A stretch of DNA of 64,000 bases from Thermoflexia bacterium (GCA_011192125.1 DUEL01000055.1:5770-69769); one strand, 5' to 3'; numbered from the stretch's first letter, positions 25,168-59,847 are shown. The notes: generated by a model not told the origin, from the letters alone. Numbers and translations: made by a program.

Positions 25168-25255
25168 CTTTTAAACCTCCTTTGCCTGATAGGTCGCCCG
25201 CTTAGACGATTTGAAGATATCATAACGGAGGAATTAGCCCTCGGTCAATACTCCT

Positions 25256-29630: not shown

Positions 29631-30830
29631 TTATGCTCTCTCATACCCATAGATACGAGTGAAATCGTGCACTAGTCTATCCCAATAGAACCGCTCTCGG
29701 ATCGCCAGTGCTTCGGCGGAGAGGCGATCTCTGAGTGGTTCATCCCTCAAGAGAGCTATCATAGCCTCGGAGAGCGCAACTGGGTCCCCAGGCGGAATTA
29801 GCAAACCGCCTCCGTGTGCTAATATCGTGGCTCGGTCTCCCACGTCTCCAGTGATTACCGGGGTGCCTGCTGCCAGGCTCTCCACCACCTTGAGGGGATA
29901 GCGACCATGTTCTGCTAATGTTCCTCGCACGGGATCAACCGAGACTTCGGCCAAGCGGTAATAGAGAGGCACTTCATCGGGGGGAACTCGGCCTAAGAAG
30001 AGCACTCTCCTTAGCCCTAATGCTTGGGCTTGGCGTTGTAGCTTTTCGTAGTCTTCTCCGCCCCCCACCAATATTAATATCGCTCGGCCCTCAGCGCGCT
30101 GGACGAGTGCAAACGCTTCCAGTAGCAAGTCTACAGCATGATTGGCCAAACTGAGGCTTCCTACATAGACTATGACCTTCCGATCCTCCAATCCCAGGCG
30201 GCGGCGGGCTCTCTCGATGTCCACGTCCTTTATAGCGGAAAACCGCGTACGATCTACGCCGTTGGGAACATAGACGATGCGGTCCCTTTGGCATCCTAGC
30301 TGCACCAAGCGTTCAGCCATAAAACGGGTATTAACGGTGACACCAGCCGTAATCCGAGGGAGGGAATTCTCAAAAAAGGCCACTATTCTGCGTTGCCAAC
30401 TCCCGCTGAAGCGGTTGGAGGCAGCTTCGTAATCGTCGCAGTCGAGATAAACTGGCTTTCCTAGCAAGAGGGGTGGCAAGAGAGCCAGTCCGTTCATCGG
30501 ATGAGGTTTGCAGATGTGATATACATCGGTTGGTGTTAACAAAGCGGCCTTCGTCAGCCGTAAGGTGGCTAAGGTAGAGACCAGTATTAGCTGGATTGGC
30601 CCAAAGTAGAGTTTTTGATTGCCTACTTTCCGTACGTGCATCTGCCCGACGTAGTGAACCCTGACACCTCCCTCCACATATTCTTGCTGTTGCAGCGTTT
30701 GAAAGTTGTGGTGCAGTGCCAAGAGGGTCACCTCGTGCCCGAGCCGCACTAACTCCTTGGACAGGGGCCAGTAGCGTCCCAATCCGGACGGACTTTCGAG
30801 GCTCTGCGTGAGCAAGAAAGTGATTCTCAA
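29631..30830 (-). CDS. Glycosyltransferase family 4
   Basis: MRITFLLTQSLESPSGLGRY GT4 N-domain; C-terminal GGGE...E GT4 motif region. Confidence 0.75.
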   Translation of the reverse strand: MRITFLLTQSLESPSGLGRYWPLSKELVRLGHEVTLLALHHNFQTLQQQEYVEGGVRVHYVGQMHVRKVGNQKLYFGPIQLILVSTLATLRLTKAALLTPTDVYHICKPHPMNGLALLPPLLLGKPVYLDCDDYEAASNRFSGSWQRRIVAFFENSLPRITAGVTVNTRFMAERLVQLGCQRDRIVYVPNGVDRTRFSAIKDVDIERARRRLGLEDRKVIVYVGSLSLANHAVDLLLEAFALVQRAEGRAILILVGGGEDYEKLQRQAQALGLRRVLFLGRVPPDEVPLYYRLAEVSVDPVRGTLAEHGRYPLKVVESLAAGTPVITGDVGDRATILAHGGGLLIPPGDPVALSEAMIALLRDEPLRDRLSAEALAIRERFYWDRLVHDFTRIYGYERA

Positions 30831-31927
30831 GCCTGCCTCCTCGTCATTAGGGCCACTAGATCATCCCACGAGGATGGAGGTCGACCGTTGTCCCCCCTTT
30901 CTGGTGGTGAGTCCTGGGTGAAGAAGCGCACGATTGCCTTTGCAAGCGTCTGGCTATCGGCGGGTAACGGGACGTCTTTGGAGTCCAGTACCTTCTGGGT
31001 GGTTATCACCGGTTTCCCCAGGCCTCTGGCCAACTCGACTACGCCGCTTCCAGTCGCTTGCCGGTAAGGTGCCACCAGTACGTCTGCTGCGGAGAAGAAT
31101 AAAGGTATTTCCTCGTTAGGGATGTAGCGATCGTAAAGGAATACCGAGTCGGCGATATTCAGATCTTCTATCAGCCTCAGGTAATCCTCCTTATCTTCCC
31201 AGAACTCCCCTGCTACCACGAGAATCACGTTTCCTAGTTGCTCCCGGACACTGGGCAGTGCGCGCAGGAGGTCTCGTAGCCCCTTGTATTTTCTCACAAT
31301 TCCAAAGAAGAGCAAGACAGGGGTCTCTATGGGTAATCCAAGCCGTTTACGTGCTTCATCTTTGGGAATTCGCTCTCCCGCGAACATATCGTACATGGGA
31401 TGAGGAACCACCGCGATGGGCACATTTGGTAACAGTCTCTGCAGCCGTTCTCTTTCTTCCTTTGATTGCACTACGAACCGTGTTCCTAGTCGCAACACAC
31501 ATCTGGCAGCCAATGCATCCCACCAGCGGGCCTCGTGGGGGAGTACGTTGTGGCAGATATAGACCAATGGTCTTCGCAACAGAGCGCGCTGCAGGGTTCC
31601 TAAGACAATCCACGCAGGTGCCCAGAAACTCGTCCACCATTGGAGGACCAACACGTCAGGCTGGTAACGACAAATGCGCCAGAAGGTCACCAGCCAGCTC
31701 AGCGGATTCAAAGAGTCAATCCAATACCGGGCATCCTCGACCAGAAGCGGCTTTTTACTCGGATCCTTGTCACTATGGCCAGGGAACAGCCAGCGAGGGT
31801 ATTGCCTTTTGAAGGAAATCATCAACACCTCGTGGCCTCGCTTGCGGAGCGCTCGGTAGAGCATCGTCGTGTAATGAGCGATCCCACCACGGTAAGGATA
31901 GACCGGTCCGACGAGCACTACTTTCAT
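30827..31927 (-). CDS. Glycosyltransferase family 4-like (GT1 superfamily)
   Basis: MKVVLVGPVYPYRGGIAHYT N-terminus; GT-B C-terminal half; 4-bp overlap with downstream GT4. Confidence 0.7.
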   Translation of the reverse strand: MKVVLVGPVYPYRGGIAHYTTMLYRALRKRGHEVLMISFKRQYPRWLFPGHSDKDPSKKPLLVEDARYWIDSLNPLSWLVTFWRICRYQPDVLVLQWWTSFWAPAWIVLGTLQRALLRRPLVYICHNVLPHEARWWDALAARCVLRLGTRFVVQSKEERERLQRLLPNVPIAVVPHPMYDMFAGERIPKDEARKRLGLPIETPVLLFFGIVRKYKGLRDLLRALPSVREQLGNVILVVAGEFWEDKEDYLRLIEDLNIADSVFLYDRYIPNEEIPLFFSAADVLVAPYRQATGSGVVELARGLGKPVITTQKVLDSKDVPLPADSQTLAKAIVRFFTQDSPPERGDNGRPPSSWDDLVALMTRRQA

Positions 31928-32021
31928 CTCTTATACCCCGGGTTCCGAGACAGGATCCATCGCTTCGCTTACGGCCCAAGGAGGTAGACTTGGAATGGCC
32001 CAATGGCCTCTCGCTTAAGCA

Positions 32022-32145: not shown

Positions 32146-34590
32146 CTATTGCCCCGATATCTCTCTGAGCTCGAATATCCACACCAAATCCTGATGATAT
32201 ATCGGCCGAAAGTGCGCGCTTTGTAGAAGCAGTTTCGGATCTAGGACGGAGGGGCCGTTGTAGTTGACCCGCCCCCGTTGCTGACCAATGTAGACGTGGG
32301 TAATGCCTCGCTCCTGCAACACAGCCAGGGTCTCAGGGTGATTAATCCCTGCTTCCTCGATCTGGGCCTTCAGTTCGTTGATCCACTGCCGGTAGTCGTC
32401 CTGGAGCCCCTGCTCCGTTCCATAGTTCAACGGCGGTGCCGTGTTGGCACGTTTGCCCAAAAGTGGAATCCACCAACCAGCATCAGAACCTGCAATCACG
32501 CTTCCCCCATAAGCAAAGAAAGAATTAACCAGAAACCGAGCATCCTCCGGCGTATTCTCCCGGATCCATGCCATCGCTCGAAGGTCGGGGCGGGTGACCA
32601 TCGCATGGCGGTCCACCTGTAGGTCTCCCATACGTCGCCAAGCACCCGTCAGGCCTATTCCCACCAGTAACACCACCGCCAGTAACCTGAGCCATTTCCG
32701 CGCCGTCCACTGAACCATCACTTCTCCTAGCAGCCACCCTATCGATACACCTGCCGGGATATACACCGCGATGAACAGCGCAAAGTTGCTGATAGCCCCG
32801 CTGCCTGGGAGGCGGAGCCAATCTGGGTTGGTTGCAATCAGAAGGAGGAACCACCACAGGGAGATCAGCAGGACGCCTCGTCGTCGTCTCCACAGTCCCG
32901 CGGCGATCGCCACCATCAGGAGCAGCCATCCCACGGGGGCCATAAAGCGAGTGATGTCGCCGATCGCGTTGTACTGACGGGTAAACGACGTAAGATGATC
33001 GGGAGGGGTGGTCATCTGCCGTGCGAAGTTTTTGAGGATCCTTCCTTGAAAGATATGGGAAAACCAGGGCAAGAATAGCACGGCCGCCCCGCTTCCTGCT
33101 CCGCTTATCCGCAGCAGTATGTGATACCAGTTCTGTCGTCTGAGGGAAATCACAATCCAGGCAACGACAAATATGATGTAAAAGATCAAGACTCGATAGT
33201 GAGTCAGCGCCAGTCCCCCTGCGACAACCCAGACCAACGCAGTCAATTTCCAGTTCCATCGAGGGGCCTCAAACAGTGCCCAACTCAACACCACTGCCGC
33301 GGGCAGGATCGTCTGCCCGGTCAGTTGAGTGTACCGCCCCCAGTTCACGTAGAACATCGGCATCGGCAGGAGCAGGCCCGCCACCACGACTGCTCCTACT
33401 CCCGCCCAACGGTTTTGGCTCATCCGGACCGCCAGAGGGTAAAGCGCGAACACCGCCAATCCGTTGAGAATCTGCCCGACCCAAATGACGGCCTGCACCA
33501 CGTCTATCCCAGTTACCCAATGAAAGGTCGCCACAGCCGCGTGGAAACCGAAATGGTAGGTGAAACTCCGAAGTTCGGCATAGGGCTCCCACGAGTCGAA
33601 CAGCCCTTTGTTATCCACCAATAACTGGGCGATCATTGTGTGCTGGTAAGAATCCCCCCACATCGGCGCGTCCAGCGTGCGCACCACCAGCAACCGCACG
33701 CCGAAGACCAGCGCCAGAAGGATCACCAAGGCCAGGTCGGGCCAGAGGGCCTCGGAACGGGCCCACCGTCGCAGGGCTTCCCATCCCTCCCGGGGTCGCC
33801 AGTCCCGATAACGCCAGGCCAGCGTTGCCACCCCGCCCGCCACAGGCAGCCAAGCATAGAGTGGCCCCAGGTGCAGCCCCACCAGGTCGGTCCAGAGCAG
33901 CAGCAGCGGGTACAAAGCCAGGCTGGTCCCCGCGGCAAGCCCCAGCCGCTCAGCCCAGGAGAGTCGTGCGTCCGGCCAGAGCCAGACCAGCAGCGCCCAG
34001 CCTGGCACGATGTAGAGCAGCCCTGCCACCGCCAGCAGCCCTAATCCCTGTACCGTAGCCCGTGCCAGGTCTACGATCATCCATCGGGGATCGTAAACTA
34101 GTCGAAAAGCCATCTGGACATCCAGGGGCTGGTGATCCCGGTAGAGCGCTCCGTCCAGATATGCGTCGCCCGCCGCTCCACCAATGGCTACACTCCCTTC
34201 ACCTTCCATCTCTATGAAGGCGTAGTAATATCGACCGTGGGCATCGGGCAGGGGAGGGAAAGAGAACCGGTAGAAACCGGCCTCCGTCAACTGATCTAGC
34301 GGGAGAGTGCTCGCGGCCAGGTCGTCCGTCGCCTCCGGGTCGGCGCGGAGGTGAATCCGGAGTTCACCTCGCGCCCCCGGCTCCGGTGCCAGCCACACCT
34401 CCACCCCGTTCAGCCCTCCGTGGCGGGCGACGAAGGTCTGCCCTACCGTGTGGCCCGGTTCCAAGAGGGTCGTTACCTCGGGAACGACGTTGACCTGGTC
34501 GCGGTCCACAAAGTTGGAGCACCCGGTAAGTAGAAGCAACATCCCCAGGACAAGCAGCAGGACACTCAACGGACTCCGGCGTCTCTTCAT
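32146..34590 (-). CDS. Large polytopic membrane protein with lipoprotein-type signal and extracytoplasmic domains (GT-C-like glycosyltransferase or polymerase candidate)
   Basis: 814 aa; N-terminal LLLTGCSNF lipobox; more than 12 TM helices in the middle; stop overlaps start of downstream DPM1-like GT2. Confidence 0.45.
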
Positions 34591-39707: not shown

Positions 39708-41678
39708 ATGGAACGCAAGTCGAAGGCATTGGTGGGATTGGTCCTCACGGGGTTGATATTTGTCCTGTCATTAACTGGAGGGAGACCTTCCTCGGCCACC
39801 ACGCGGGCCAGCTATACAGTTATCCCCTTGAACGGGGCCAAGATCGTGGGTTCTTCGCCGACGGCCGCTGATTTCAATGGGGATGGGTACAAGGAGATCG
39901 TCGTGGGGGGTAGTGACGGTATCCTGCACGTTGTCTCCTTCGATGGCTTCACGTGGTCCGAGGTGTGGTCCCACCAGACTAATATCGATATCAACGCTGC
40001 CAATCCTCCCAATCCCAACTCCGATAACAACATCCGCACCTCCCCGGCTATTGCTGACCTGGACAACGACGGTCACCTGGATATCGTGGTGACTGTGGGA
40101 GGATTTGTCCATACTGATTTTGAGGACCGGCGCAACGGAGGGGTGCTGGTCTACCGCTATGAGGGGGACTCACCTTGGGACTTTGCGCTGATCGAGCCTC
40201 TCTCCGCGGACGGCTCACGGGGGTGGCCCCAGCCCCGCATAGATCAGATTGGAGCCGGACCGGGCGAAGGAGAGCCGGACGGTCTGTGGGACGGCATCCC
40301 CACTTCGCCAGCGGTAGGCGATATTGACGGTGACGGTGACCTAGAGGTCATCGTCGCGGGGATGGATCGGCGCATCCACGCCTGGCACCACGACGGCACG
40401 GTGGTGGATGGCTGGCCGATCTCCCAATGGAACGGGGACCCCCTCTGGCGGGGCGGGCGTTCCTCTCCAGCGCTGGGGGATATCGACGGGGATGGATTGC
40501 CGGAGATTGTGGTCGGCACGATGAGCCCCTACGAGAATGGGCAACAGGATCAGAACGCAACCCTTTGGGCCCTCAACGGCGATAGCAGCATCGTGCCGGG
40601 CTTCCCAATCCGGACGGAACAACACATCCACTCCTCTCCCGCCCTGGGAGATATTGATGGCGACAGGTATCTGGAGATCGTCGTCGGGGTCGGGGAGGGC
40701 ATCTCCAGCGGCAGGGAGAACATCGTCTACGCCTGGAACCACGACGGTACTCCCCTTCACGTGCCGGGCGGTCAGCCGTGGCCCCGTGAGACCTCCAACA
40801 CTGTTCTGGCTCCACCTGCTCTGGGCGACATCGACGGCGACGGTGAGCCAGAGGTGGTGATCGGCGAAGGAGGGTACGACCTCACCGATGACAACAAGTT
40901 GTACGCCTGGAACGCGGACGGCAGCCTGGTGCCTGGGTTCCCCGTCCTGGTCCCCTCCCCCAGCCCGTGGGCTACTGGCTCGCTCCCCCTGCAATATACG
41001 CCCATTTTGGCCGATTTCGACGGCGACGGGACGGTTGAGATCCTGGCCACGCACCTCAACGATTGGGGCTTTGTGGTAGTGGAGCCGGATGGCACCGTCA
41101 GCGACGTCACAGGGCACCCTATGCGGCAGGGGCTGTGGGCCCCGCCTATGGTGGACGATGTGGACGGCGATGGCCTGCTGGAGATCGTGGCGGCCAGCGG
41201 CGACGCGGACGAGAACGGGGAGATACGTATCTGGGACGAGAACGGTACTACGGCGTCGGCTCTGCCCTGGCCAATGTTCCACCACGACATTGAGCGTACC
41301 GGCCTTTACACCGCCCCTCCCTCCCTGGGATTCCCCGACCAGGTCTGTGTGTTTCACCAACAGGGGAGTGGCCCGTCCGAAAGTGTGAGAGTCTCCATCT
41401 GGAACGAAGGGGATGGGGCGTTCGATTGGGTGCTGGCCTCCTCCACCGGTCTAATTCAGCTTTCACCCACCTCCGGTACGTTGACGGAGAGCACCAGCGT
41501 GCAGTTAACTGTGGATGTTAGCAGCCTTCCCAATGGATGGACGACAGTCGGTCAGATCACCGCGACGGCTACCTATGCAGGGGAGGAGGTTGCGGGTAGC
41601 CCTAGAACCGCCCCGGTCTCGGTGTACGTCGGCGATGTGTACTATGGCTACCTGCCGGTCGTTCTACGGAGGTACTAG
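39708..41678 (+). CDS. Secreted FG-GAP/VCBS-repeat beta-propeller protein
   Basis: Signal peptide; at least 7 repeats of the form ADFNGDGYKEIVVG / ADLDNDGHLDIVVT / GDIDGDGDLEVIVAG / GDIDGDGLPEIVVG. Confidence 0.65.
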   Translation: MERKSKALVGLVLTGLIFVLSLTGGRPSSATTRASYTVIPLNGAKIVGSSPTAADFNGDGYKEIVVGGSDGILHVVSFDGFTWSEVWSHQTNIDINAANPPNPNSDNNIRTSPAIADLDNDGHLDIVVTVGGFVHTDFEDRRNGGVLVYRYEGDSPWDFALIEPLSADGSRGWPQPRIDQIGAGPGEGEPDGLWDGIPTSPAVGDIDGDGDLEVIVAGMDRRIHAWHHDGTVVDGWPISQWNGDPLWRGGRSSPALGDIDGDGLPEIVVGTMSPYENGQQDQNATLWALNGDSSIVPGFPIRTEQHIHSSPALGDIDGDRYLEIVVGVGEGISSGRENIVYAWNHDGTPLHVPGGQPWPRETSNTVLAPPALGDIDGDGEPEVVIGEGGYDLTDDNKLYAWNADGSLVPGFPVLVPSPSPWATGSLPLQYTPILADFDGDGTVEILATHLNDWGFVVVEPDGTVSDVTGHPMRQGLWAPPMVDDVDGDGLLEIVAASGDADENGEIRIWDENGTTASALPWPMFHHDIERTGLYTAPPSLGFPDQVCVFHQQGSGPSESVRVSIWNEGDGAFDWVLASSTGLIQLSPTSGTLTESTSVQLTVDVSSLPNGWTTVGQITATATYAGEEVAGSPRTAPVSVYVGDVYYGYLPVVLRRY

Positions 41679-42504: not shown

Positions 42505-43488
42505 ATGGAGACGGAAACTACGGTTATCATTCCGAACTGGAATACCAGGCACTGGCTGCCAGGTTGTCTAGGCGGCCTGCGTGAGCAGATCTATCGAGAC
42601 TTTCGGATTATCCTAGTGGATAACGGCTCAACTGATGGTTCGGTCACCTTCGTGCGGGAGTACTATCCTGAGGTCCAGGTTCTGGCTTTTGATCGAAATA
42701 GGGGGTTCGCCTCGGCGGTCAACGCTGGCATCCGAGAGTCCCATTCCCCCTATGTAGCTCTGCTTAATGTTGATACGATACCTCTGCCGGGCTGGCTACT
42801 CCATCTGGTCGAAACGATCAAGAGCGGTCCCGATGTTGGCAGCGTGGCCTCTAAGATGCTACAGTTGGAGAACCCGACCCTCGTGGATGATGCGGGCGAC
42901 ATGTTCAGTTGGTACGGATCGGCCCGCAAGCGGGGACAAGGAGAGCCAGCCCAATGGTATGATCGTCCGGAGGAAGTATTATCTGCCTGCGCTGGTGCGG
43001 CTCTTTACCGCCGCGCGCTGCTTGAGGAGCTGGGAGGTTTTGATGAGTCGTTCGTTAGCTATCTGGAGGACATTGATCTGGGGCTGCGAGCACGGCTTCT
43101 AGGTTATCGCTGTCTATACGCACCCGAGGCGAGGGTGCTCCACCAAGGGCACGGGGCTGGCATTGCCCGTTCACGGTATGTCTATCTAATGACCCGCAAC
43201 CGGTTGGCTGTGCTGACCAAGAACATCCCCTCATCCCTGCTGCGCAAGCACTGGCGGACCTTGCTCTATGGTCAGTTCTATTTCTTCCTGGTCTATAAGC
43301 GGCCGCTCCACTCCATTGCCGGCACCGTCGCCTGGCTGGTGGCCTTACCGCGCCTCTTGAGGCAACGGCGCGAGATCCAGGCGCGGAAGGTCATTTCGGA
43401 TCAGACGCTGGAGGCTCTGCTCTCCACCGAGCTAGGAGAAATTCCGCTCAGGGAGATCATTGTCAACAAACTGCGGCGAGTTTCATAA
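42505..43488 (+). CDS. Glycosyltransferase family 2 (WbbL-like rhamnosyltransferase type)
   Basis: TTVIIPNWNTRHWL...ILVDNGSTDGS...LNVDTIP...DEDIDLGLR. Confidence 0.75.
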   Translation: METETTVIIPNWNTRHWLPGCLGGLREQIYRDFRIILVDNGSTDGSVTFVREYYPEVQVLAFDRNRGFASAVNAGIRESHSPYVALLNVDTIPLPGWLLHLVETIKSGPDVGSVASKMLQLENPTLVDDAGDMFSWYGSARKRGQGEPAQWYDRPEEVLSACAGAALYRRALLEELGGFDESFVSYLEDIDLGLRARLLGYRCLYAPEARVLHQGHGAGIARSRYVYLMTRNRLAVLTKNIPSSLLRKHWRTLLYGQFYFFLVYKRPLHSIAGTVAWLVALPRLLRQRREIQARKVISDQTLEALLSTELGEIPLREIIVNKLRRVS

Positions 43489-44844
43489 GTGCCGCACCTT
43501 CCAACGCGCATACTCGTGTAGCTGGGTGACAATGCCTCTCGCACCTCCCAGTCGCAAGGCTCGCCAGCCTTTTTGTAGCAGCCGTCGCCAACCTCCCCAT
43601 TTCCCTGAAGGGATTACCCCCCCTATGGGATACCCCTTGTCAGGTGCGGTGTAAGGGGCGGCGCAGAAATCCGCTAGCGGCTTCACAACGATATCCCATC
43701 GGTAATTTTTCGCTACTTCCTGTATGCGGTCCCGACGCTCCTGACAGTCGATCGGGTCTCTCAATACATCCAAGATGGCTCGAGCTACCCCTTCGACGTC
43801 ACCAGGTGCGACCAGTGTAGCCAGCCCCTGGGCAGCCAGTGTCTCCCCCATCACGTCGCCGACCGTCGCGACAATGGGCAGTCCTGCCCACAAGTAGTCC
43901 AGCAGGCGTGTTCGGAAGGCAAAGCGTGTTTCTACATGATCCAGATGCAGGCTGACGCCCACGTCTGCCTCAAGCAGGTAGTTCTGGCGCTCGTCGTAGG
44001 GGACCCAGTCGTTGAAGAAAATATGGGTTCCGTACAGCCCCATTTCCTTACTGAGCGCAATAGCCTGCTCTACCGCTGTTGTCCGCGCACGCTCCTGGTT
44101 GGAGCGCTTGATGCCCATGAAGAAAAGCTTAACGTCGTCACGATGGGCTAGTATACGTGGCATAGCCTTGATCATTGTTGGTGCGTCGAACCATTCCCAA
44201 ATGCCCCCGCCCCACAAGATAACCTTGTCGTGAGGCTGGATGAAGGGAGAAACTCCCTTCAGGACGGGGTGGGTGTGCTGTGGCGGTTCTGCAGGCAAGC
44301 CGAAAGGCACAACAGCGATCAGTCGGCGCAACGAGGGGTCGTCTTGATAGGTATACGGGTTGACGCGCCCCGCAGCCGAGAGCATACCTAGCCAGTAATC
44401 CCGCTGTTTCTCACCTGCGCAGATAAAGAAATCGCCCGCGCGCAGCTGGAGCCAGAGCGCTTCAAGATAATTCTCATACGAAATGAGACGGTCCAGCCAG
44501 TCCATATGGGCCTTACGTTGCAGATCCTCTAACAAGAAAGGATCGTAAAGGTCCACCACCAGGGGCTTTCCAGATTCGGCCACGAATGGGTAAAGAAACA
44601 GCACAACCCCCAATGTCACAACCACATCGCAGTCCTCGACCAGTGCGCGCAACTCCCGCACTGTAGGGCAGATCCGAAGCCAATCTTCGCCAGAGGGTGG
44701 GGTTTGGGGGGCAATGAAGGGCGGTACTGCCAGGGTGACATCAAAGTGCTGGCCCAGCGCGCGCGTTAGCTCCCAGTAGCGGATGCCGGGGCCGGCCATG
44801 TTCTTGCCCACGATGTCGTTGCATATAAGAAGAACCCGAGTCAT
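43483..44844 (-). CDS. GT-B glycosyltransferase (GT4-like)
   Basis: MTRVLLICNDIVGKNMAGPGIRYWELTRAL N-domain; C-terminal GLPIVAT...E motif; ATG 44844 chosen (ORF opens GTG 44853). Confidence 0.55.
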   Translation of the reverse strand: MTRVLLICNDIVGKNMAGPGIRYWELTRALGQHFDVTLAVPPFIAPQTPPSGEDWLRICPTVRELRALVEDCDVVVTLGVVLFLYPFVAESGKPLVVDLYDPFLLEDLQRKAHMDWLDRLISYENYLEALWLQLRAGDFFICAGEKQRDYWLGMLSAAGRVNPYTYQDDPSLRRLIAVVPFGLPAEPPQHTHPVLKGVSPFIQPHDKVILWGGGIWEWFDAPTMIKAMPRILAHRDDVKLFFMGIKRSNQERARTTAVEQAIALSKEMGLYGTHIFFNDWVPYDERQNYLLEADVGVSLHLDHVETRFAFRTRLLDYLWAGLPIVATVGDVMGETLAAQGLATLVAPGDVEGVARAILDVLRDPIDCQERRDRIQEVAKNYRWDIVVKPLADFCAAPYTAPDKGYPIGGVIPSGKWGGWRRLLQKGWRALRLGGARGIVTQLHEYARWKVRHL

Positions 44845-45100
44845 ATTCCTCACTCTATTTCCTATTTCTACTGCGGAGCTAATTATACCACTAGGCTACT
44901 CGCCATCAACATGATATGGGGAGGTGCTCAAGGTATTCGAATCAGAAGCGTAGGACAGCATCTCTCCACGACATATCGGTTTATCGGCTCACTGCTATCA
45001 CGGGGGAACAATTATGTGCCGGAGGCGCATCGCACCTGCGACAGGGGCTATAATGGGAGGGACAGGACGGCTTATTGCTTGACACAAGCACTAGGCGGCT

Positions 45101-45128
45101 TTGCCAGGGCCATGGGGCGTGGTATAAT
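45101..45128 (+). promoter_or_regulatory. Sigma70-like promoter with extended -10 (TTGCCA-16-TGgTATAAT) for 984-aa GT gene
   Basis: ttgcca gggccatggggcgtgg tataat, about 60 nt upstream of ATG 45190; located in a lower-GC 336-bp divergent intergenic region. Confidence 0.35.
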
Positions 45129-45189
45129 CTGGACCATTCAATCGGGGTGAAGATCGGTAGCGCATCTTAGCGTCGAGGGTGGAGAGGCG

Positions 45190-48144
45190 ATGCCTTTCTC
45201 TGTTTATTTTATCAGCGGTTGCAAGGCTGGCACCACTTTTGAATACCGCGTCTTGCAAAAACAGGAGCAATTGGCCGCGTATGGTATCCCCAGCCTGGCA
45301 CGGCAGGAGCTGGTCGACCGCGAGCAACTCCTCCAAGAGGCAGCGTCCCATGATGTGCTCTATCTCTATCGCATTGCCTATGGTCCCCTCATCGAAGATC
45401 TGATTGAGCAAGCGCGCGGGCAGGGTATTCCTGTTGTCTTCGACATAGATGATTTGGTGTTCGAGCCCGAATTGGTTCACTGTGTGGATCCTGTTAGAGC
45501 GATGGATCACGAGGAGGCGGCCCTCTACTATAAAGGCGTTTGGCGCTACCGCCGCACGCTCCTGGCCAGTGATGCGGTTGTTACCTCCACCGGGTATCTG
45601 GCAGAGAGAGCGCGCGCTCTGGGCAAACGGGCCTTTGTGCATCGTAACGGCCTCAGCAGGTGGATGATCGAAGAAGCATCTCGTCTGGTTGAGCAGCGTC
45701 GAACGCAATCGAACTCCGAAAGGGTGATCATCGGGTATGGCAGTGGTACAGCTACCCATCGTAAGGATCTGGCCGAAGCAGCCGAAGCGCTAGGGGAGAT
45801 TATGGCCCGCTATCCCTATGTCGAACTGCACATTGTGGGTGCGCTCCACCTCAGCGATCCATTGCCTTTGCCAGATGAACTCAAACCATTCGCCGACCGC
45901 ATTCGGCATCGCCCCGCCGTGGCCTGGCGGGACTGGCTCGCTGTGCAGAGTAGCTTCGATATCAATCTTGCCCCTCTGGAATCCGGCAACCCCTATTGTG
46001 AAGCCAAGAGCGAGATCAAATACACTGAGGCAGCCATCGTAGGTGTGCCGACCGTCGCCAGCCGCACTGGCGCCTTCGAGTTCGCCATCCGCGACGGCGA
46101 GACCGGGTTCCTGGCTGGTGACACCGATGAGTGGGTGGCTAAGCTGGAAGCATTGGTGACCGACGCACCGCTGCGCCAGCGGATGGGGGAAGCAGCTCGT
46201 CTCGATGTGCTCGCCCGATACACGCCGGAGGTGCTGGGGAAGCAGTTGGTGGAAACGTTGACTACCATTCAGACCTTCCACCATCAAACCCGTGCGGCGG
46301 TTTCGATCCCTGGCACAGCCGAGGCCCCTCTGATTCTGAACTGGATCTTTCCGGAGCCAATCCCCGGCTCCGGTGGGCACAGGAACATTGTTCGGATGAT
46401 CAACCTGCTGGCCAGTTTCGGTCATCAGGTCAACGCCTACATTGTACCGCGCTACCACCTGTGGGACAAAAGTGATCTGGAGGTGCGCGCGTTCGTGCGT
46501 CGTCACTTCACCGACCTTGACGCCGGGGTTTTCAAATGGGCTGGCGGGCCAATGGTTGAATCGGACGCGGTTGTCCTGACCCACTGGTCCACGGCCTATC
46601 TAATCGACAATGTTAGGAACACCTCGAAGATCTTCTACTTTGTGCAGGATTGGGAGCCCTTCTTCTTCCCGATGGGAACCGACTACCTGCGTGCGGAACA
46701 GACCTACAAAATGGGCTTTTCTTGCATCACTCTCGGGCGCTGGTTAACCAAGCGGCTGCGGGAGTGGTACAACGCCGACGCGGACTATTTCGACCTGGCG
46801 GTGGACCACCATATCTACTACCCTCGTCCGGTTGAGAAAGCTGACCATCCTCGTATCTGCTTCTACGCCCGCCCCTCTACCCCTCGTCGTCTCTTCCCAA
46901 TCGGGATTGAGGCGCTTGAGCGGATCCACCAGCGCCGTCCAGATGTAGAAATCGTTCTCTATGGCACTGAGGATGCGGAACTGTGCCAATATGAGATCTC
47001 GTTTCCTTACACGAATCGAGGTATCCTCACAGAGGAGGAACTGGCTGAGCTGTTCTCAGCCTGCGAGGTGGGCATAGTCCTCTCCCCCACCAATTGTTCC
47101 CTGATCCCTCCGGAGATGATGGCCTGTCGTTGTGCCGTGGTGGACCTGAACCGGGAAACGGTGATGGGAGTGCTGGAGCATGAGGTCAACGCGCTGCTGG
47201 CGGAGCCGACGCCGGAGGCTATCGCTGAGGCGGTGCTGCGCCTGCTGGAAGACGAGCCACTGCGCCAACGGCTGGTGGAGACGGCCTATCGACAGATGCA
47301 GGAGCGCTCTTGGCTCAAGTCGGCGCGGAAGGTGGAGGAGATCTTGTACCGGAAGTTGCCCGCGATGCGCCGAGGGCTTGCCCCGCATCGTTTCAAAATG
47401 CTCCCAAATCTGCCCGCGCTGGGCGGTTTACCCGAGGATCAGCAATACCGCCTGAACATCATCCACGCCGCCCGGCGGCGGGTGTTCGCGCAGGGAAAAG
47501 CCGTCCTCTGGGCGTGGTGGGAACGGATTCTGAGGACGGTCCGACGTGTGACGCTGAACGGAGCGACAGTGCGGCCACTGGGTGAGCTAACGGGTCGACG
47601 GCAGATTGGGCAGCACTTCGTTGCCCGACGGGATGGACTCTATCGGGTGGATGTGCTAGTCGACACCTACGGCCGCTGCAACACACGCGATATCATATTT
47701 CGCCTCAGGGAGTCTCCCACTGCCGAGGATGATCTGGCAACCGTGCGCGTCAACGCCAGCCTGCTACTCGACCGGGGGTATGTCAGCTTTGCCTTCACTC
47801 CCCTGACTGACTCAGGTGGCAAATCCTACTATTTTGTCATCGAGTCGCCGGAATCAGTGCCGGGGGACGCGATCACTCTATGGGCATACCGTGATGCCGA
47901 TGTGCCGGGTGCAGAGCTGGAGTGGAACGGGCGCACCATCAGCGGGCATCTGGTCTTCGGGTTGTTCTATTGGGATGAGCGGGTGGGTGTCGTGGGAGAG
48001 CGTCCCCTCTTACACGAATGGAGCGGAGGGATCACTTTCTTGGATCGGCTGAAAAAGGGCTTGCACGTACTTGCGGTTCAGGGGCTGAAAGGGCTGCAGC
48101 GTGAGGTGGTGAACTACTGGAAGTGGAAGACCGGGCGAGTATGA
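45190..48144 (+). CDS. Large multidomain glycosyltransferase (at least two GT-B modules plus C-terminal domain); N-terminal module paralogous to 49235..50611
   Basis: 984 aa; N-terminal 100 aa align with gene 49235..50611 (YxxxxxxGxxxxxxYRxxxxQEQLAxxGIP...DxDDLVFxPEL); central WsaF-like Rossmann module; RBS GGAGAGG. Confidence 0.55.
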   Translation: MPFSVYFISGCKAGTTFEYRVLQKQEQLAAYGIPSLARQELVDREQLLQEAASHDVLYLYRIAYGPLIEDLIEQARGQGIPVVFDIDDLVFEPELVHCVDPVRAMDHEEAALYYKGVWRYRRTLLASDAVVTSTGYLAERARALGKRAFVHRNGLSRWMIEEASRLVEQRRTQSNSERVIIGYGSGTATHRKDLAEAAEALGEIMARYPYVELHIVGALHLSDPLPLPDELKPFADRIRHRPAVAWRDWLAVQSSFDINLAPLESGNPYCEAKSEIKYTEAAIVGVPTVASRTGAFEFAIRDGETGFLAGDTDEWVAKLEALVTDAPLRQRMGEAARLDVLARYTPEVLGKQLVETLTTIQTFHHQTRAAVSIPGTAEAPLILNWIFPEPIPGSGGHRNIVRMINLLASFGHQVNAYIVPRYHLWDKSDLEVRAFVRRHFTDLDAGVFKWAGGPMVESDAVVLTHWSTAYLIDNVRNTSKIFYFVQDWEPFFFPMGTDYLRAEQTYKMGFSCITLGRWLTKRLREWYNADADYFDLAVDHHIYYPRPVEKADHPRICFYARPSTPRRLFPIGIEALERIHQRRPDVEIVLYGTEDAELCQYEISFPYTNRGILTEEELAELFSACEVGIVLSPTNCSLIPPEMMACRCAVVDLNRETVMGVLEHEVNALLAEPTPEAIAEAVLRLLEDEPLRQRLVETAYRQMQERSWLKSARKVEEILYRKLPAMRRGLAPHRFKMLPNLPALGGLPEDQQYRLNIIHAARRRVFAQGKAVLWAWWERILRTVRRVTLNGATVRPLGELTGRRQIGQHFVARRDGLYRVDVLVDTYGRCNTRDIIFRLRESPTAEDDLATVRVNASLLLDRGYVSFAFTPLTDSGGKSYYFVIESPESVPGDAITLWAYRDADVPGAELEWNGRTISGHLVFGLFYWDERVGVVGERPLLHEWSGGITFLDRLKKGLHVLAVQGLKGLQREVVNYWKWKTGRV

Positions 48145-48171: not shown

Positions 48172-49224
48172 TCAGAGAGCCTGCCGCCTAACGTCGAACC
48201 GTTTCGCTACCCTGTTTAACCAGTTCAGCAGGCGCATCACGCGGCCCCGACTGATTTGATCGAGTAACTCCCTATACCGCTGAAGCATGAGACGCAGCTC
48301 GTGCGTTTCATACTCCCGCACCCAACGATAGTAGGTGCTCATATCCATAGGAGTTATATCTCCAGAGGCGGCCTCTGGTGGTTGGGGGCCACCAGGATAC
48401 TGGAAATTAAGGGGATATCCCCAAACCGCCATCTCCGGGCCGCAAATCCTGGCAAGCACTTGTTTCTGTTCGCGTGTCCAATCCACAGGATAGAAGAAGT
48501 CTCCGACATCTTTTTCGGGAAAAGCCGTGTTCTCCCGCCGTGATTTGAACACATCGGCGACGGCCTGACTCCACTCGGGCACCCCCAGGAAATCAGTCAC
48601 TCGACGCGCGACTTGGCCAGGTTCGGTCACAATGTGCTCCTGCGCGACCTCAATGTAACGTCCGGTTAAAAGGGGTCGGACCTGGCGCCACATTTTCATC
48701 ACTGCGACCCAATGCTTGCAGGTAGAGAGGAACACTGCATCCACATTGGCTTTGCTATCGTGGTTTCTCTGCATGTAGGCGATCGTTGAGTTGACGGTGG
48801 TGATCGCGTTACGTTTCATGAAAATGAACTGGGCCTGTGGGAATATCTCTGCCAGCATTGGGGCAACCAATACCGCATCCACACCGGGGGACTTGCTTAC
48901 CCAGCGCACGCACTCGGGTGGCAACTGATCACGGTGGAATTGATCAATCAGCAGCGCTATCTGACGCTCCAGCAGCAGGTTACGCCCCGCTCCCAGTGCA
49001 AAGATCTCCTCACGGAGGTGCGCCTTATACTCGGGATCGCGCCACCACGCGAGCGGCTTAATCAGATCATACCACAGATGATCCTCTGGAAACCCGAAGA
49101 ACCCGGCTACACGCAGGGCTCGCCACATAATCGAGGTGCCTGTGCGCTGTCGACCGAGGATAAAAATCGGGTCGAGTTGCCGCCACTGTGCTTCTATTTC
49201 ATCCATCCCTGGTATTTGCCCCAT
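48172..49224 (-). CDS. Sulfotransferase family protein with C-terminal amphipathic helix/coiled coil
   Basis: 5'-PSB-like P-loop ILGRQRTGTSIMWRAL; 3'-PB-like region; C-terminal ...DQISRGRVMRLLNWLNRVAKRF. Confidence 0.5.
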   Translation of the reverse strand: MGQIPGMDEIEAQWRQLDPIFILGRQRTGTSIMWRALRVAGFFGFPEDHLWYDLIKPLAWWRDPEYKAHLREEIFALGAGRNLLLERQIALLIDQFHRDQLPPECVRWVSKSPGVDAVLVAPMLAEIFPQAQFIFMKRNAITTVNSTIAYMQRNHDSKANVDAVFLSTCKHWVAVMKMWRQVRPLLTGRYIEVAQEHIVTEPGQVARRVTDFLGVPEWSQAVADVFKSRRENTAFPEKDVGDFFYPVDWTREQKQVLARICGPEMAVWGYPLNFQYPGGPQPPEAASGDITPMDMSTYYRWVREYETHELRLMLQRYRELLDQISRGRVMRLLNWLNRVAKRFDVRRQAL

Positions 49225-49234: not shown

Positions 49235-50611
49235 CTAGCCCTGGATATTCCGTCCTGCGGCTCGTCGCCATAGGCGTTGGAGGCTCGTTAACAACCGCAT
49301 CACGCGGCCTTGCATTATAGCCTCGATAGTCTGCTCGAGGTCGGCTATCCGCTGCTCCGCCCTCATCAATCCAGCCTCGTAACTCCGCATAGCCTGCCGC
49401 AGTCCCTTGATCTGTTCCTCTTGCTCTCGGATCTGTTGTTGTATCTCACTCGCGTATCGCTCGACGCCTGCAATGAAGATATGCCACAGCTCGTTCTTGT
49501 TAGCCGGAGGGCCGCCGTACTGCTGGCGGATGTCGCTCAACGTGGCCCACAGCTCCTCAGCCCGCCGTTCGGGCGTGTAGCGGGCGTACACGGTGCGGCG
49601 GGCAGCCTCGCCCATCTCCCGGCGTCGTTGAGGGTGGTCCAGCAACATCTGTAGAGCTTCACGCCACTCGTCGGGCGAGTTGACAAGCAGGCCGTTGCGC
49701 CCGTGGGCAATAGCATACTCATAGGCTTCCGCACGGCTAGCCACAGTGGGTACTCCCACCAACGCTGCCTCGACGAACTTGATCTCGCTCTTGGCCTGGC
49801 AGAAGGGATTATCTGTCTCCAATGGCACTAGGTTGATGTCGGCCTGAGCGATAACATGCGGTAACTCGCGCCAGGTCATATAGGGCGTACGGCGGATGCG
49901 GGACCGAAGCGGTTCGAACGCCGGGCTCAACTCTAGGTAGCCGCCGATGTGCAGCCAGACCCAGGGGTAGGTGGACATCACCCATACGAGCGGTTCAGTG
50001 ATGGTTTGAAAATCACGGTTGTGGGAAGCGGTACCGCTGAAATAGCCAATGACAACGGGCCGTGCCGCGTTGCTCTCCTCAAGACGGCGCTGCCGTTCAG
50101 CCCACGCTTGCTCAGAGATGCGGAACATCTCGGCGTTAGGGGCGTTGCGGTTGACATAGGCTGGCTTGCCCCGTCGCCGCGCCTCCTCTGCCAGGAACTC
50201 TGTCGTAGTGAGCACACAGTCGCAATGTTGAAAGGTCTCTTCCAGCCGTGCCAGGTCCGCTCGAAAGCGGCGCGCTACCTCCGGAGGGAGTGTGTCTACC
50301 AAGCCAATATGCGCATATAGCTCGGGGTCGAAAACGAGGTCGTCCGTGTCAAAGATGACAGGCTTACCCTGAGCGTGAGCGAGCTCGATGATCAGACCGA
50401 CCAGCGGGCTGAACGGCACGCGGTGTAGTATGAAGACATCGTAGTCGAAAACATCTGTTAGTAACTGCGGGTCGTCGTCCTCGCGCAGTGATGTGGGTAC
50501 GCCTTTGAGAGCTAGCTGTTCTTGTTGATGGATGCACCGATAGCGGCGCGTATCACCGCCTATTCCACTGATGAAAAGTACCTTGAAGGCCTCCGCCTTC
50601 GTTGTTGTCAT
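49235..50611 (-). CDS. GT-B glycosyltransferase with about 70-aa C-terminal coiled coil
   Basis: GT4-like core (KSEIKFVEAALVGVPTVASR); C-terminal heptad-rich EIQQQIREQEEQIKGLRQAMRSYEAGLMRAEQRIADLEQTIEAIMQGRVMRLLTSLQRLWRR; ATG 50611 with GGAGGGG RBS. Confidence 0.55.
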   Translation of the reverse strand: MTTTKAEAFKVLFISGIGGDTRRYRCIHQQEQLALKGVPTSLREDDDPQLLTDVFDYDVFILHRVPFSPLVGLIIELAHAQGKPVIFDTDDLVFDPELYAHIGLVDTLPPEVARRFRADLARLEETFQHCDCVLTTTEFLAEEARRRGKPAYVNRNAPNAEMFRISEQAWAERQRRLEESNAARPVVIGYFSGTASHNRDFQTITEPLVWVMSTYPWVWLHIGGYLELSPAFEPLRSRIRRTPYMTWRELPHVIAQADINLVPLETDNPFCQAKSEIKFVEAALVGVPTVASRAEAYEYAIAHGRNGLLVNSPDEWREALQMLLDHPQRRREMGEAARRTVYARYTPERRAEELWATLSDIRQQYGGPPANKNELWHIFIAGVERYASEIQQQIREQEEQIKGLRQAMRSYEAGLMRAEQRIADLEQTIEAIMQGRVMRLLTSLQRLWRRAAGRNIQG

Positions 50612-50653
50612 AATGTTCAACCCCTCCACTGCACCGCTGTTGTCGCACGCCCG

Positions 50654-51886
50654 TCAAGTGGTCCTTTTGCTTTTTCCTTCCCCTTCCCACACCCATTCTC
50701 CCCGCAATGTCAGAATGCCAAACCGTTCCCCATCCGAAGGTAGCACCCGAAGGGGGTACAACCGGTTATGATAGTCGTATATTTCTGTATCCTCCCAATC
50801 GTGAGCGGAGACGGAGAGGTAGTAGAGACCCTTTAGGAGGGGCAAAGCCGGGACGATGTATCGCACCGTTCCTTCCCCTTCTACCCAGGGGATCTCTAGG
50901 CCTGCGAACCGGGTGTTCGGCCCGGTAACGTGGACTCCGTCGCTGCGGTGGATGGCCAGGCCAAAGATCGGCCGCTCTACTCGCTCCTGGGCTTGATACC
51001 GCATCTCCACCACCAGGGGCTCTCCTACTCGGAACTGTTGCCTCTCCTGGCCCTCGCCATCTAACAAGCGGACAGCGATGATCTTTATCTTGCCACTTCC
51101 CCAACGGCGGCTATCTCCCCTAGCGGCGTGAAGCCGCCCCTTCTCTGCTGCCCAGGTGCGGTCCAGATACCGCAGTACCACTCCCTCGGCGGGGCCATCG
51201 TCCACCAGTTGGCCCTGGTCCAGCCATATGGCTCGAGAACAGATGGACCGGACGGCCTCTGGGGCGTGGGACACGAAGAGGATGGTCACCCCTTGCCGCC
51301 GCAGGTCATCTATCCGCTCCAGGCACTTGCGCTGGAAGGCTGCGTCTCCCACTGCCAGTACCTCGTCCACTAGCAGAATATCTGGCTCAGTGTGGACGGC
51401 GACGGAGAAGCCCAGCCGCACGTACATCCCGGAGGAGTAGTGCCTCACCGGCACATCGATGAACCGCTCCAGTTCGGCGAAACCGATGATGTCATCCAGT
51501 TTGCGGCGGATCTCCGCTCGGCTCAGGCCCAGGATAGAACCATTGAGGTAGATATTCTCCCTGCCGGTCAGGTCCGGGTGAAAGCCTGCACCCAATTCCA
51601 GAAGAGCCCCAACCCGTCCATCTACGACGATCCGGCCGGAGGTAGGCTCGATGATGCGGGAGATCAGTTTAAGGACAGTGCTCTTGCCTGCTCCGTTGGG
51701 GCCGATCAGCCCCACCGTCTCCCCCTGCTCGACGGTGAAACTCACATCCCGCAACGCCCAGAACTCCTCCCGGGAGTGCTCGTTACGGCGAAGGAGATGG
51801 AGGGCCAGCTCCTGGAAGGAACGGGCCCTCTCGTGGTGAAGTGTGAATCTTTTGGAGACACTCTCAAAACGGATTGCCACACTCAA
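50654..51886 (-). CDS. wzt: ABC transporter ATP-binding protein for polysaccharide export with C-terminal carbohydrate-binding domain (Wzt/TagH-like); TTG start
   Basis: Walker [10 protein letters not shown], signature LSGGM-type region, Walker B ILLVDE; about 150-aa C-terminal extension typical of Wzt O-antigen-binding domain; GAGGA RBS before TTG 51886. Confidence 0.8.
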
Positions 51887-58615: not shown

Positions 58616-59660
58616 CTACCCCTGGTCGCTCCCCGAGCCCAGTCGCTCCGCGTACTGCCGCTGATAGTACTCCTGGTAGTGCTTCCCACTCTTGATCGGC
58701 CGCCACCACCATTCGTTCTCCACGTACCAGCGGACCGTCTTTTCGAGGGCCTCTTCGAACGTGTGGCGGGACTCCCATCCCAGGGCGCGGATCTTGCTGA
58801 TGTCTAACGCGTAGCGGCGGTCGTGGCCGGGTCGGTCCTTCACGTGGCGAATCAGCGAGTGAGGTTTGCCCAGGATGTCGAGGATCGCGCGGGCCATATC
58901 GATGTTTCGTGTCTCTACACCGGTGCCCAGGTTGTAGACCTCCCCTGGCTGTCCCCTGTGAAGCACCACGTCGATCCCCTCGCAGTGGTCGACCACGTAC
59001 TGGTAATCCCGCATCTGGCTGCCGTCACCGTAGAGGGGCAGGGGCTGATCGTCGATGGCGTTCGTGATGAAGAGCGGCACTACCTTCTCCGGGTACTGGT
59101 AGGGGCCGATGTTGTTGGACCCTCGGGTGATGGTGACCGGGACGCCGAAACTGGTGAAGTAGGCGATACACAGCAGATCGCCGCTGGCCTTGGAGGCGGA
59201 GTAAGGGCTGCGGGTGTGAAGGGGGTCGGTCTCCTTCGCGCGCCCCTCCAGGACCTCCCCGTAGACCTCGTCCGTGCTCACCTGGTGGTACCGCTCCAAC
59301 CCGAACTCCTTCGCCGCCTCCAGCAGGACGTAGGTGCCGAAAACGTCGGTGCGGATGAACTCGTCCGGCTCCATCAGGGAGCGATCCACGTGGGTGGCCG
59401 CGGCGAAGTTGACGATGGTGTCGATGTCGTGCTGGCGGATCACCTCCCGCACCAAGTCGGCGTCGCAGATGTCCCCTTTGACGAAGGTGTACCGATCGCC
59501 GAAATCCTGGGCCACGTCCTTCAGGTTCTCCAGGTTCCCCGCGTAGGTCAGTTTGTCGTAGACGACGATCCGGTAGTCGGGATACTTCCGGAGCATATAC
59601 CGGACGAAGTTGGAGCCGATGAACCCGGCTCCGCCGGTCACCAACAGGTTGCGCACGATC
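58616..59660 (-). CDS. rfbB: dTDP-glucose 4,6-dehydratase
   Basis: LLVTGGAGFIGSNFVRYML..YDKLTYAGNLENL..TDEVYG..YSASKA signature; GTG 59660 preceded by GGAGGAGGAGG (ORF extends to 59776 through a repeat element). Confidence 0.85.
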
Positions 59661-59710
59661 CTCCTCCTCAGGTGTTGGGATGGCGATATTGTACCACATC
59701 CGAGGCGAGA

Positions 59711-59847
59711 GGCAATCGCATTTTCCGTAACCGCGGAGGCGCAGAGAGCGCAGAGTTCAACGTTTTTCCCCTCCATTCTCCGTGTCCTCTGCGCCTCTGC
59801 GGTGAGATCCGGCTGCCACCACCTACTTCCTGGAAAATGCGATAGCC
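59711..59847 (+). repeat. Dispersed element, copy C, nested inside outer 17-bp inverted repeats (ggcaatcgcattttccg / ggaaaatgcgatagcc)
   Basis: ccgcggaggcgcagagagcgcagag...attctccgtgtcctctgcgcctctgcggtg in rfbB/nfeD divergent region. Confidence 0.55.

Follow-up and report, generated by a model that had tools for sequence, protein, structure and literature searches.

A two-module glycosyltransferase with a stand-alone paralogue: a candidate chain-extending enzyme of a Wzm/Wzt glycan pathway in Chloroflexota

What is the task of a 984-residue glycosyltransferase that joins several modules in one polypeptide and has the first of them a second time in a separate gene close by? The question is raised by a stretch of 64,000 nucleotides from a Thermoflexia bacterium (GCA_011192125.1 DUEL01000055.1:5770-69769), called the window in its full length; Thermoflexia is a class within Chloroflexota. 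The original prediction for this locus had proposed a multi-module glycosyltransferase (GT), related to the neighbouring protein by module duplication, in a pathway dependent on an ATP-binding cassette (ABC) transporter. We arrive at the reading, to which we give a probability of roughly 60%, that the protein is a chain-extending GT with two active sites that serves a Wzm/Wzt pathway in a monoderm bacterium of the Chloroflexota. Judged by the architecture of the target and the context of its gene, chain extension is its most likely role. The gene and the parts of its product are as follows:

45190..48144, + strand: target gene for the 984-residue dual GT (open reading frame (ORF) with ATG start, exact copies on 4 contigs, homologues, AlphaFold model)
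45190..46305, + strand: module 1, GT-B, GT4-like, residues 1-372 (Pfam, sequence matches to PimA, PimB and MshA, identity with the paralogue)
46327..47355, + strand: module 2, GT-B, WsaF-like, residues 380-722 (Pfam WsaF_N/WsaF_C, PDB 2x0e)
47548..48027, + strand: beta-sandwich resembling a carbohydrate-binding module (CBM), residues 787-946, preceded by two helices (residues 749-784)
48031..48141, + strand: C-terminal basic amphipathic helix, named tail B, residues 948-984 (AlphaFold helix 950-981; hhalign against the neighbouring GT4 family)

A protein identical to the target is encoded on 4 independent metagenome contigs, and the search for relatives returned 576 homologues; among those listed, 47 span 99-100% of the protein with 56-80% identity, nearly all of them 974-1058 residues long. 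An artefact of assembly, frame or fusion was rejected on account of these exact copies and near-full-length homologues. A scan for transmembrane (TM) segments predicted none in the target. Pfam finds Glyco_trans_1_4, Glycos_transf_1 and Glyco_trans_1_2, which are of the GT1/GT4 type, at residues 185-348, and WsaF_N (28.8 bits) and WsaF_C (61.3 bits; Pfam cut-off 27) at residues 457-682, but no domain past about residue 720. An AlphaFold model built on 35 homologues (mean predicted local distance difference test score (pLDDT) 89.1, predicted template modelling score 0.83) has a GT-B module at residues 4-371, a short low-confidence linker, a second GT-B module at 382-722, two helices (749-784), a beta-sandwich (787-946) and a long end helix (950-981). 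In this model each GT-B module is predicted to have two Rossmann-like domains, and Foldseek matches the protein to PglA, MshA, PimA, BshA and WsaF in the PDB with expect (E) values of 1e-13 to 1e-14. The multi-module character that had been proposed is thus borne out by Pfam, by the model and by the structural matches to GT4 enzymes and WsaF. What the original prediction had passed over are the C-terminal 260 residues, with the CBM-like domain and the tail, and the coiled-coil tails of the neighbours described below.

The two modules of the target resemble each other only remotely (E 0.008 over 75 residues), so the protein is not the product of an internal duplication, and this candidate explanation was rejected. 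Module 1, in turn, has a close relative in the neighbourhood:

49235..50611, − strand: stand-alone paralogue of module 1, 458 residues (BLASTP, 445 homologues)
49502..50611, − strand: catalytic part of the paralogue
49238..49501, − strand: coiled-coil tail of the paralogue, ending in GRVMRLL (49289..49309)

In BLASTP, residues 3-361 of the target match residues 15-368 of the ORF 49235..50629 (− strand); the alignment comprises 363 residues, of which 45% are identical and 59% positive (E 2e-85). The end coordinate 50611, an ATG, agrees with the public gene call of a 458-residue protein from a metagenome-assembled genome (MAG) named 'Thermoflexia bacterium', which is 100% identical; the sulfotransferase encoded beside the paralogue matches the same MAG. 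A residue-by-residue alignment had been claimed for the first 100 residues, and the similarity turns out to be stronger than that, since it takes in the entire first GT-B module; the motifs quoted for it, QEQLA and GIPVVFDIDDLVFEPEL versus GKPVIFDTDDLVFDPEL, are present in the alignment. Nor is it the likeness of any two Rossmann folds, but a family-specific one with invariant active-site motifs, among them NPFCQAKSEIKFVEAA. Of the proposed module duplication one half stands: the separate protein and module 1 are genuine paralogues, whereas within the target neither module is a duplicate of the other, nor do WbdA-type polymerases typically have a stand-alone paralogue. Between genomes, orthologues of the paralogue share 53-73% identity in their catalytic part, as compared with 41-45% between the paralogue and module 1. 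The duplication therefore predates these lineages and, as judged from these identities, is an old event between separate genes. Paralogue and module 1 share 51% identity in the donor-side Rossmann domain and 43% in the acceptor-side domain, which would fit the use of a similar donor on a different acceptor. The paralogue has about 90 extra residues at its C terminus, with weak matches to many coiled-coil families in Pfam and a heptad-like pattern at residues 378-435 in a simple heptad scan; they end in IEAIMQGRVMRLL, a motif retained in close orthologues.

The catalytic sites can be compared with those of characterised enzymes. When module 1 is aligned with PimA, its invariant E280 takes the place of the second glutamate of the EX7E motif, and the paralogue family retains the module 1 motif NPFCQAKSEIKFVEAA. 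For module 2, the WsaF sequence of PDB 2x0e aligns with residues 454-685 of the target (E 2.4e-10). Mutagenesis of WsaF had pointed out D171 and F176 in the acceptor tunnel and Y247, R249, R254, K302, Y329 and E333 in the donor site (PMC3898925). D171, F176, Y247, R249 and R254 correspond to D487, F492, Y559, R561 and R566 of the target, and E333 to the invariant E642, with a register shift of one residue in the phmmer alignment; all six target residues are invariant or nearly so among 35 homologues. Hence 6 of the 7 WsaF residues compared (D171, F176, Y247, R249, R254, K302 and E333) are retained. The position of the first EX7E glutamate is occupied by T634 in module 2; WsaF itself has P325 there and is nevertheless classed as GT4 (PMC3898925).

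Which sugar module 2 transfers is less obvious. The nine-residue signature PHPSYPPLE was proposed to mark the use of deoxythymidine diphosphate (dTDP)-L-rhamnose, and the corresponding stretches are TNLSLLPLE in the fucosyltransferase WsbJ and TNLSYLPVE in WbbX, which uses 6-deoxy-altrose (PMC3898925). The target has TNCSLIPPE, which is of the WsbJ/WbbX type and not of the proline-rich rhamnose form. Among its 120 best homologues, 110 match the signature motif, nearly all as TN[CPLT]S[LF][VI]P.E, and the proline-rich form was found in none. Because the signature is of this TN type, L-rhamnose is not to be assumed as donor. A dTDP-6-deoxyhexose stays plausible, since a dTDP-glucose 4,6-dehydratase, a possible source of such donors, is encoded 7 kb away:

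58616..59776, − strand: dTDP-glucose 4,6-dehydratase, RmlB (NCBIfam equivalog TIGR01181, 461.5 bits against a cut-off of 365.1)

The pathway to which the target belongs is indicated by its genomic surroundings, where both parts of an exporter are encoded:

50654..51886, − strand: Wzt, ABC-transporter ATPase with C-terminal carbohydrate-binding domain (Pfam ABC_tran and Wzt_C; similarity to TagH and galactan Wzt in NCBIfam)
22395..23210, + strand: Wzm, ABC-2 permease (Pfam ABC2_membrane, 56.3 bits; similarity to Wzm/RfbD and KpsM in NCBIfam; 5 predicted TM segments)

Wzt_C covers residues 259-390 of Wzt with 103.9 bits against a cut-off of 30.4, and the dependence on an ABC transporter that had been predicted for this locus is upheld by these two genes. 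They are not adjacent but lie on opposite strands at opposite ends of a cluster, 28 kb apart. This cluster of about 30 kb holds at least 11 GT genes; five are GT2 genes, one of them a GLF-GT2 fusion, and six other genes encode GT-B enzymes. It also contains three methyltransferase genes, the genes for an FG-GAP protein and an 814-residue membrane protein, and those for the target, the sulfotransferase and the paralogue. In characterised systems a Wzt with CBM goes together with a chain-terminating cap and a coiled-coil terminator, and multi-module GTs polymerise (PMC11231755, PMC9445017, PMC2943079). Since the cluster is bounded by wzm and a wzt gene with Wzt_C, we regard the pathway as ABC-transporter-dependent and cap-terminated. 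The association is seen beyond the window in related loci, here designated by L numbers: the dual-GT family stands beside Wzt_C-type transporters in the window, in L004 (a MAG of the Anaerolineae), L006 (a second MAG), L009 (Hyalangium) and L010, and in fragmented form near such a transporter in L012; L011 and L012 are frameshifted long-read assemblies. The Hyalangium homologue (P0106) carries a fused methyltransferase, as does WsaE.

A further connection between the target and its neighbours is provided by short tails at the C termini:

48172..49224, − strand: sulfotransferase, 350 residues (Pfam Sulfotransfer_3, E 1e-17)
48175..48339, − strand: helical C-terminal tail of the sulfotransferase, with the same GRVMRLL motif at 48226..48246
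43483..44853, − strand: divergently transcribed GT4 of 456 residues that carries tail B (Pfam, alignment, hhalign)

The C terminus of the sulfotransferase, …LLDQISRGRVMRLLNWLNRVAKR, aligns with the tail of the paralogue (BLASTP E 0.004), and hhalign of 28 paralogue orthologues against 28 sulfotransferase homologues gives a match that is confined to 38 C-terminal columns (probability 95%, E 4e-8). This tail is named tail A, and 40 of 52 sulfotransferase homologues retain its motif. When the window and nine related loci were scanned for the motif in all six frames, four independent loci each had exactly two proteins with the motif near the C terminus, and in all four the pair consists of the paralogue and the adjacent modifying enzyme. 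The latter is a methyltransferase in L004; in the other three, the window, L006 and L007, it is a sulfotransferase. L007 encodes seven sulfotransferases, and the tail occurs solely on the one adjoining the paralogue. Positive in the heptad scan were the paralogue and the methyltransferase of L004. The lengths are short: the coiled coil of the paralogue measures about 60 residues, and the helical stretch of the sulfotransferase about 45. Coiled coils are a marker of terminator proteins in the ABC-transporter-dependent pathway (PMC11231755). More distant paralogues end in another tail (…LREILARLE), and in L012 this has only a faint ATLxxxLxxL likeness to the adjacent methyltransferase. Tail B has the pattern …G..GL..E…Y..WK and is distinct from the GRVMRLL tail; in hhalign the families of the target and of the 456-residue GT4 match only in this region (39 columns, probability 89%, E 2e-6). 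Orthologues of this GT4 adjoin the target orthologue or lie near it in L004, L006, L007 and L010.

Judged from these patterns, the tails may serve to dock the enzymes or to anchor them at the membrane, and in this way distribute them over two sub-complexes. Another possibility is that they are generic anchors at the membrane surface, independently arisen or spread, with no specific pairing and no capping complex. Their ends are indeed amphipathic and basic, with high hydrophobic moments (muH 0.56-0.73) and a net charge of +4 to +5 in tail A and weaker values in tail B (muH 0.52, +2), and WbdD has a membrane-anchoring helix of such a kind (PMC11231755). Nevertheless, GRVMR[LVA][LM]N is conserved in two unrelated enzyme families and more specific than amphipathicity requires (the hhalign E value of 4e-8 given above), and there are two distinct tail types, each confined to one adjacent pair. 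We therefore consider generic anchoring to be possible, though unlikely.

The beta-sandwich at residues 787-946 was compared with PDB structures. In a separate model of residues 725-984 (pLDDT 89.5) the region is predicted to be a beta-sandwich of the jelly-roll type, and its fold matches are to CBMs, in agreement with Foldseek. The nearest structures, CBMs of the family-6/35 type and beta-sandwiches of phage baseplates and tail spikes, share at most 17% sequence identity with it and, unlike these, the domain of the target sits inside a predicted cytoplasmic biosynthetic enzyme. Pfam has no model for it. The domain is widespread: phmmer against 1.84 billion representatives returned 1232 clusters with E ≤ 1e-3, of which 426 reach E ≤ 1e-10. 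Among the 60 hosts sampled, the partner domains were GT-B (11), YfhO (9), DUF6541 (7), DUF2142, GT2, DUF1616 and PMT, and some of these hosts, as well as other listed matches, are small proteins of about 220-270 residues. In this sample the beta-sandwich occurs almost only in glycan-assembly proteins, and this consistent attachment supports a role in glycan binding, which we infer for the modelled domain. Two more copies were detected in the window by hmmsearch with a hidden Markov model of the target domain:

12906..13679, + strand: bitopic protein of 257 residues, almost only beta-sandwich (E 5e-35)
32146..34590, − strand: polytopic membrane protein of 814 residues with the beta-sandwich between TM1 and TM2 (E 2e-23; TM scan)

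The 814-residue protein has no family assignment apart from the beta-sandwich in its first loop. The model of the Klebsiella pneumoniae O7 terminator also contains an unexplained CBM (PMC11231755).

The target gene has its own putative promoter, and so has the divergent GT4 gene:

45101..45128, + strand: sigma-70-type promoter with extended -10, TTGCCA-16-TGgTATAAT, 62 nt 5' of the target ATG (consensus scan)
44882..44909, − strand: promoter-like site of the divergent GT4 gene, TTGATG-16-TATAAT with TG (10/12 consensus positions)

The extended -10 promoter predicted upstream of the target holds as a consensus match, with TTGCCA, a spacer of 16 nt and TATAAT agreeing at 11 of 12 positions and a TG preceding the -10 hexamer. 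The element TGGTATAAT is found again 47-60 nt 5' of the target orthologue in two relatives, L004 and L006, where the intergenic DNA around it is otherwise diverged. The divergent region was also said to be lower in GC content, and this is so: the intergenic stretch 44854..45189 has 0.53 as compared with 0.588 in the target ORF. No Rfam family and no tRNA was found in the whole window, and thus no riboswitch or leader was detected 5' of the target; the convergent genes of the target and the sulfotransferase are separated by 27 bp, in which there is no intrinsic terminator. Two antisense ORFs (45091..45759 and 45790..46584, − strand; 222 and 264 residues) overlap the target gene. On the contigs carrying the target no gene is called on their strand, and both are probably a side effect of the high GC content.

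How could these elements work together? According to the model that we favour, a cytoplasmic enzyme with two active sites would extend a surface glycan linked to polyprenol, module 1 (GT4-like) and module 2 (WsaF-like) each forming one linkage of the repeat, with a donor for module 2 that is probably a dTDP-6-deoxyhexose and not necessarily L-rhamnose. The C-terminal beta-sandwich may hold the growing chain or the primer, and the last 35 residues, as a basic amphipathic helix, would either bring the enzyme to the membrane or tie it to the 456-residue GT4 in a complex. The stand-alone paralogue would be an old duplicate of module 1 that has gained a coiled coil of about 60 residues and that most likely forms a second sub-complex with the adjacent sulfotransferase via the GRVMRLL tail. 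In this model the second sub-complex would both add the chain end and modify it, and thereby make the cap that is read by the carbohydrate-binding domain of Wzt before export.

A number of observations weigh against this model or parts of it. As the cluster has at least 11 GT genes besides that of the target, the polymer-forming enzymes are not assignable by architecture alone, and the activity is assigned to the target family from sequence and context. In module 1 the first glutamate of EX7E, PimA E274 (PMC3898925), is absent, and a 5-residue insertion, CEAKSE, with the invariant residues K273, S274 and K277, is found there; in module 2, WsaF K302 aligns with I612 and is not conserved. In L005 and L008 the dual GT has neither a Wzt nor the paralogue nearby, and in L007 the exporter is a fused ABC_membrane+ABC_tran protein without Wzt_C. 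As for the cap, the heptad scan did not flag the tail of the sulfotransferase as a canonical coiled coil, which is why we call it helical. The CBMs of Wzt are 61% identical between two sulfotransferase loci and 57% identical between a sulfotransferase and a methyltransferase locus, so nothing indicates that the CBM varies with the modifying enzyme; the Wzt ATPase domains differed similarly in the same comparison, which is thus not discriminating. The three other methyltransferases of the cluster could provide the cap instead. In addition, L007 has seven sulfotransferase genes in the neighbourhood of its dual GT and paralogue (456..7726 and 13098..13958), which suggest that this lineage makes a heavily sulfated polymer; together with the missing Wzt_C, they point to sulfation along the chain and not only at its end. 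The weakness of the co-variation test, the methyltransferases in the cluster and the many sulfotransferases of L007 make us cautious about sulfotransferase capping. That the sulfotransferase beside the paralogue is the chain terminator, and that the GRVMRLL tail docks the capping enzyme of each lineage, be it a sulfotransferase or a methyltransferase, onto the paralogous GT, is in our view rather unlikely as a specific proposal.

The abundance of sulfotransferases in L007 leads to another view of the paralogue. The three GT modules, two in the target and one in the paralogue, could jointly polymerise a repeat with three linkages, with the sulfotransferase decorating the polymer internally along the chain; the paralogue would then be a polymerase subunit held by its coiled coil and not a chain-end enzyme. 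For such a division of labour there is precedent in Geobacillus, where WsaE (two modules) acts with WsaF, and the coiled-coil protein of K. pneumoniae O7 itself bears polymerase GT modules (PMC11231755). Moreover, paralogue and dual GT co-occur on about 15 contigs, as inferred from contigs of equal length, and are located together in L004, L006, L007, L011 and L012. However, with 51% identity to module 1 in the donor-side domain the paralogue would be expected to transfer a similar sugar and to be redundant within one repeat, and a tail common only to the paralogue and its neighbouring modifying enzyme argues for a dedicated pair. On balance a joint polymerase of three modules has a tentative claim at best, and we hold to a target that extends the chain with its own two modules. 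The idea that the target is not processive but adds two defined sugars once, in an adaptor region or a side branch, while other GTs build the repeat, would be in line with the five GT2 genes (one being the GLF-GT2 fusion) and the six other GT-B genes of the cluster and with L005 and L008, where Wzy_C or other GT2 genes are near the dual GT and no Wzt is, but it is improbable, given that two modules fused to a glycan-binding-like domain are the pattern of known polymerases, that in distant homologues the dual-GT core is joined with a methyltransferase, an arrangement known from the polymerase-terminator WsaE, and that the target has a strong, conserved promoter of its own.

Some other features of the loci deserve mention. 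Wzt heads its operon and has a 340-bp gap and the gene of an M28 peptidase upstream. Directly 5' of wzm lie three consecutive paralogues of M42 glutamyl-aminopeptidase (18840..20213, 20201..21325 and 21382..22398, + strand). The fusion protein of the cluster (27228..29444, − strand; 738 residues) consists of a flavoenzyme similar to UDP-galactopyranose mutase (GLF/amine oxidase) and a GT2 domain, which suggests that it couples the synthesis of galactofuranose to its transfer. A 656-residue FG-GAP repeat protein is encoded in the GT operon of three genomes (window 39708..41678, + strand; L004 4661..6631; L006 4764..6740); it might serve as an acceptor of the glycan or as a scaffold. In L009 the gene of the methyltransferase-dual-GT fusion is preceded by that of a 2048-residue protein (3796..9942) with three GT2 modules and WsaF-like parts, which adjoins sugar-nucleotide genes of the heptose type. 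A second set of polysaccharide genes is found at 1..13700 of the window, with a sulfatase (1523..2845), a double oxidoreductase, a GT4, an epimerase of the short-chain dehydrogenase/reductase family, a UDP-N-acetylglucosamine 2-epimerase, a Bac_transf protein and two unassigned proteins of 488-499 residues, at least the first of which has many predicted membrane segments. The Bac_transf initiating transferase (8550..10019) lies outside the wzm-wzt interval, and the sulfatase is conspicuous in the vicinity of a cluster with a sulfotransferase. There is also a step in GC content, from 0.64-0.70 over 14000..22000, a housekeeping region with flavin adenine dinucleotide-dependent oxidases and peptidases, to 0.51-0.57 over 23000..32000, the first third of the glycan cluster. 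Glycan clusters of low GC content are often discussed as horizontally acquired.

To our knowledge, almost all that has been established about ABC-transporter-dependent glycan assembly comes from O antigens of Gram-negative bacteria and from one S-layer glycan of Geobacillus. The locus described here shows the same logic in Chloroflexota, with a multi-module GT, a Wzt with CBM and coiled-coil partners. What sets it apart is a widespread beta-sandwich without a family model, present on cytoplasmic as well as membrane enzymes of glycan assembly, short C-terminal tails that appear to pair specific enzymes, and a sulfotransferase in the usual place of the chain terminator. In the literature searched, a WsaF-like module of the TN type, a fused CBM-like domain, the two tail classes and a sulfotransferase in the terminator position are not described. 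If the tails mediate pairing, they would offer a simple sequence rule to predict which enzymes act together in uncharacterised glycan clusters. A sulfate cap, if there is one, would bring a new export-cap chemistry into the control of chain length and into the making of sulfated polysaccharides by bacteria, and if the capping enzyme does dock in this way, the shared tail would be a plug-in module for the exchange of terminators.

How does the target compare with known systems? WbdA, the polymannose polymerase of Escherichia coli O8/O9a and K. pneumoniae O3/O5, is a cytoplasmic multi-module GT-B enzyme of family GT4 with one module per linkage; its pathway has Wzm/Wzt with a cap-reading CBM on Wzt, and a separate coiled-coil protein recruits WbdA (PMC11231755). 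The target differs by its WsaF-like module 2, the additional CBM-like beta-sandwich and a C-terminal tail in common with another GT4, and its organism is a monoderm member of the Chloroflexota without lipopolysaccharide, unlike the hosts of WbdA. The NCBIfam searches gave only sub-threshold, generic GT4 matches for target and paralogue and none for the sulfotransferase; no match named WbdA came up for the target in NCBIfam and the PDB, and no WbdA sequence was compared, so that the terms polymerising and WbdA-like, as the original prediction had used them, are ones we infer from architecture and context. WsaE, like WsaF a rhamnosyltransferase of the S-layer glycan of Geobacillus stearothermophilus, resembles the target as a dual GT; its gene belongs to a wzm/wzt cluster in a Gram-positive species, and the cap is a methyl group. 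A methyltransferase is fused to distant homologues of the target, as it is in WsaE, whereas Pfam finds no methyltransferase domain in the target itself. Module 2 is similar to WsaF in its Pfam domains, in the match to the sequence of the crystal structure and in key residues, and differs in the TNCSLIPPE signature, the lack of a K302 equivalent and the added beta-sandwich. The likeness to WbdD, WbbB and the terminators of K. pneumoniae O4/O7 lies in a modifying enzyme and a GT with coiled-coil or helical tails that adjoin wzt, and the ends of these tails are basic and amphipathic, which is also true of WbdD (PMC11231755). Known export caps are methyl, methyl-phosphate, Kdo and pyruvate (PMC9445017, PMC11231755). 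Unlike the known terminators, the candidate of this locus is a sulfotransferase, its coiled coil is short, and the same tail is present on two separate proteins.

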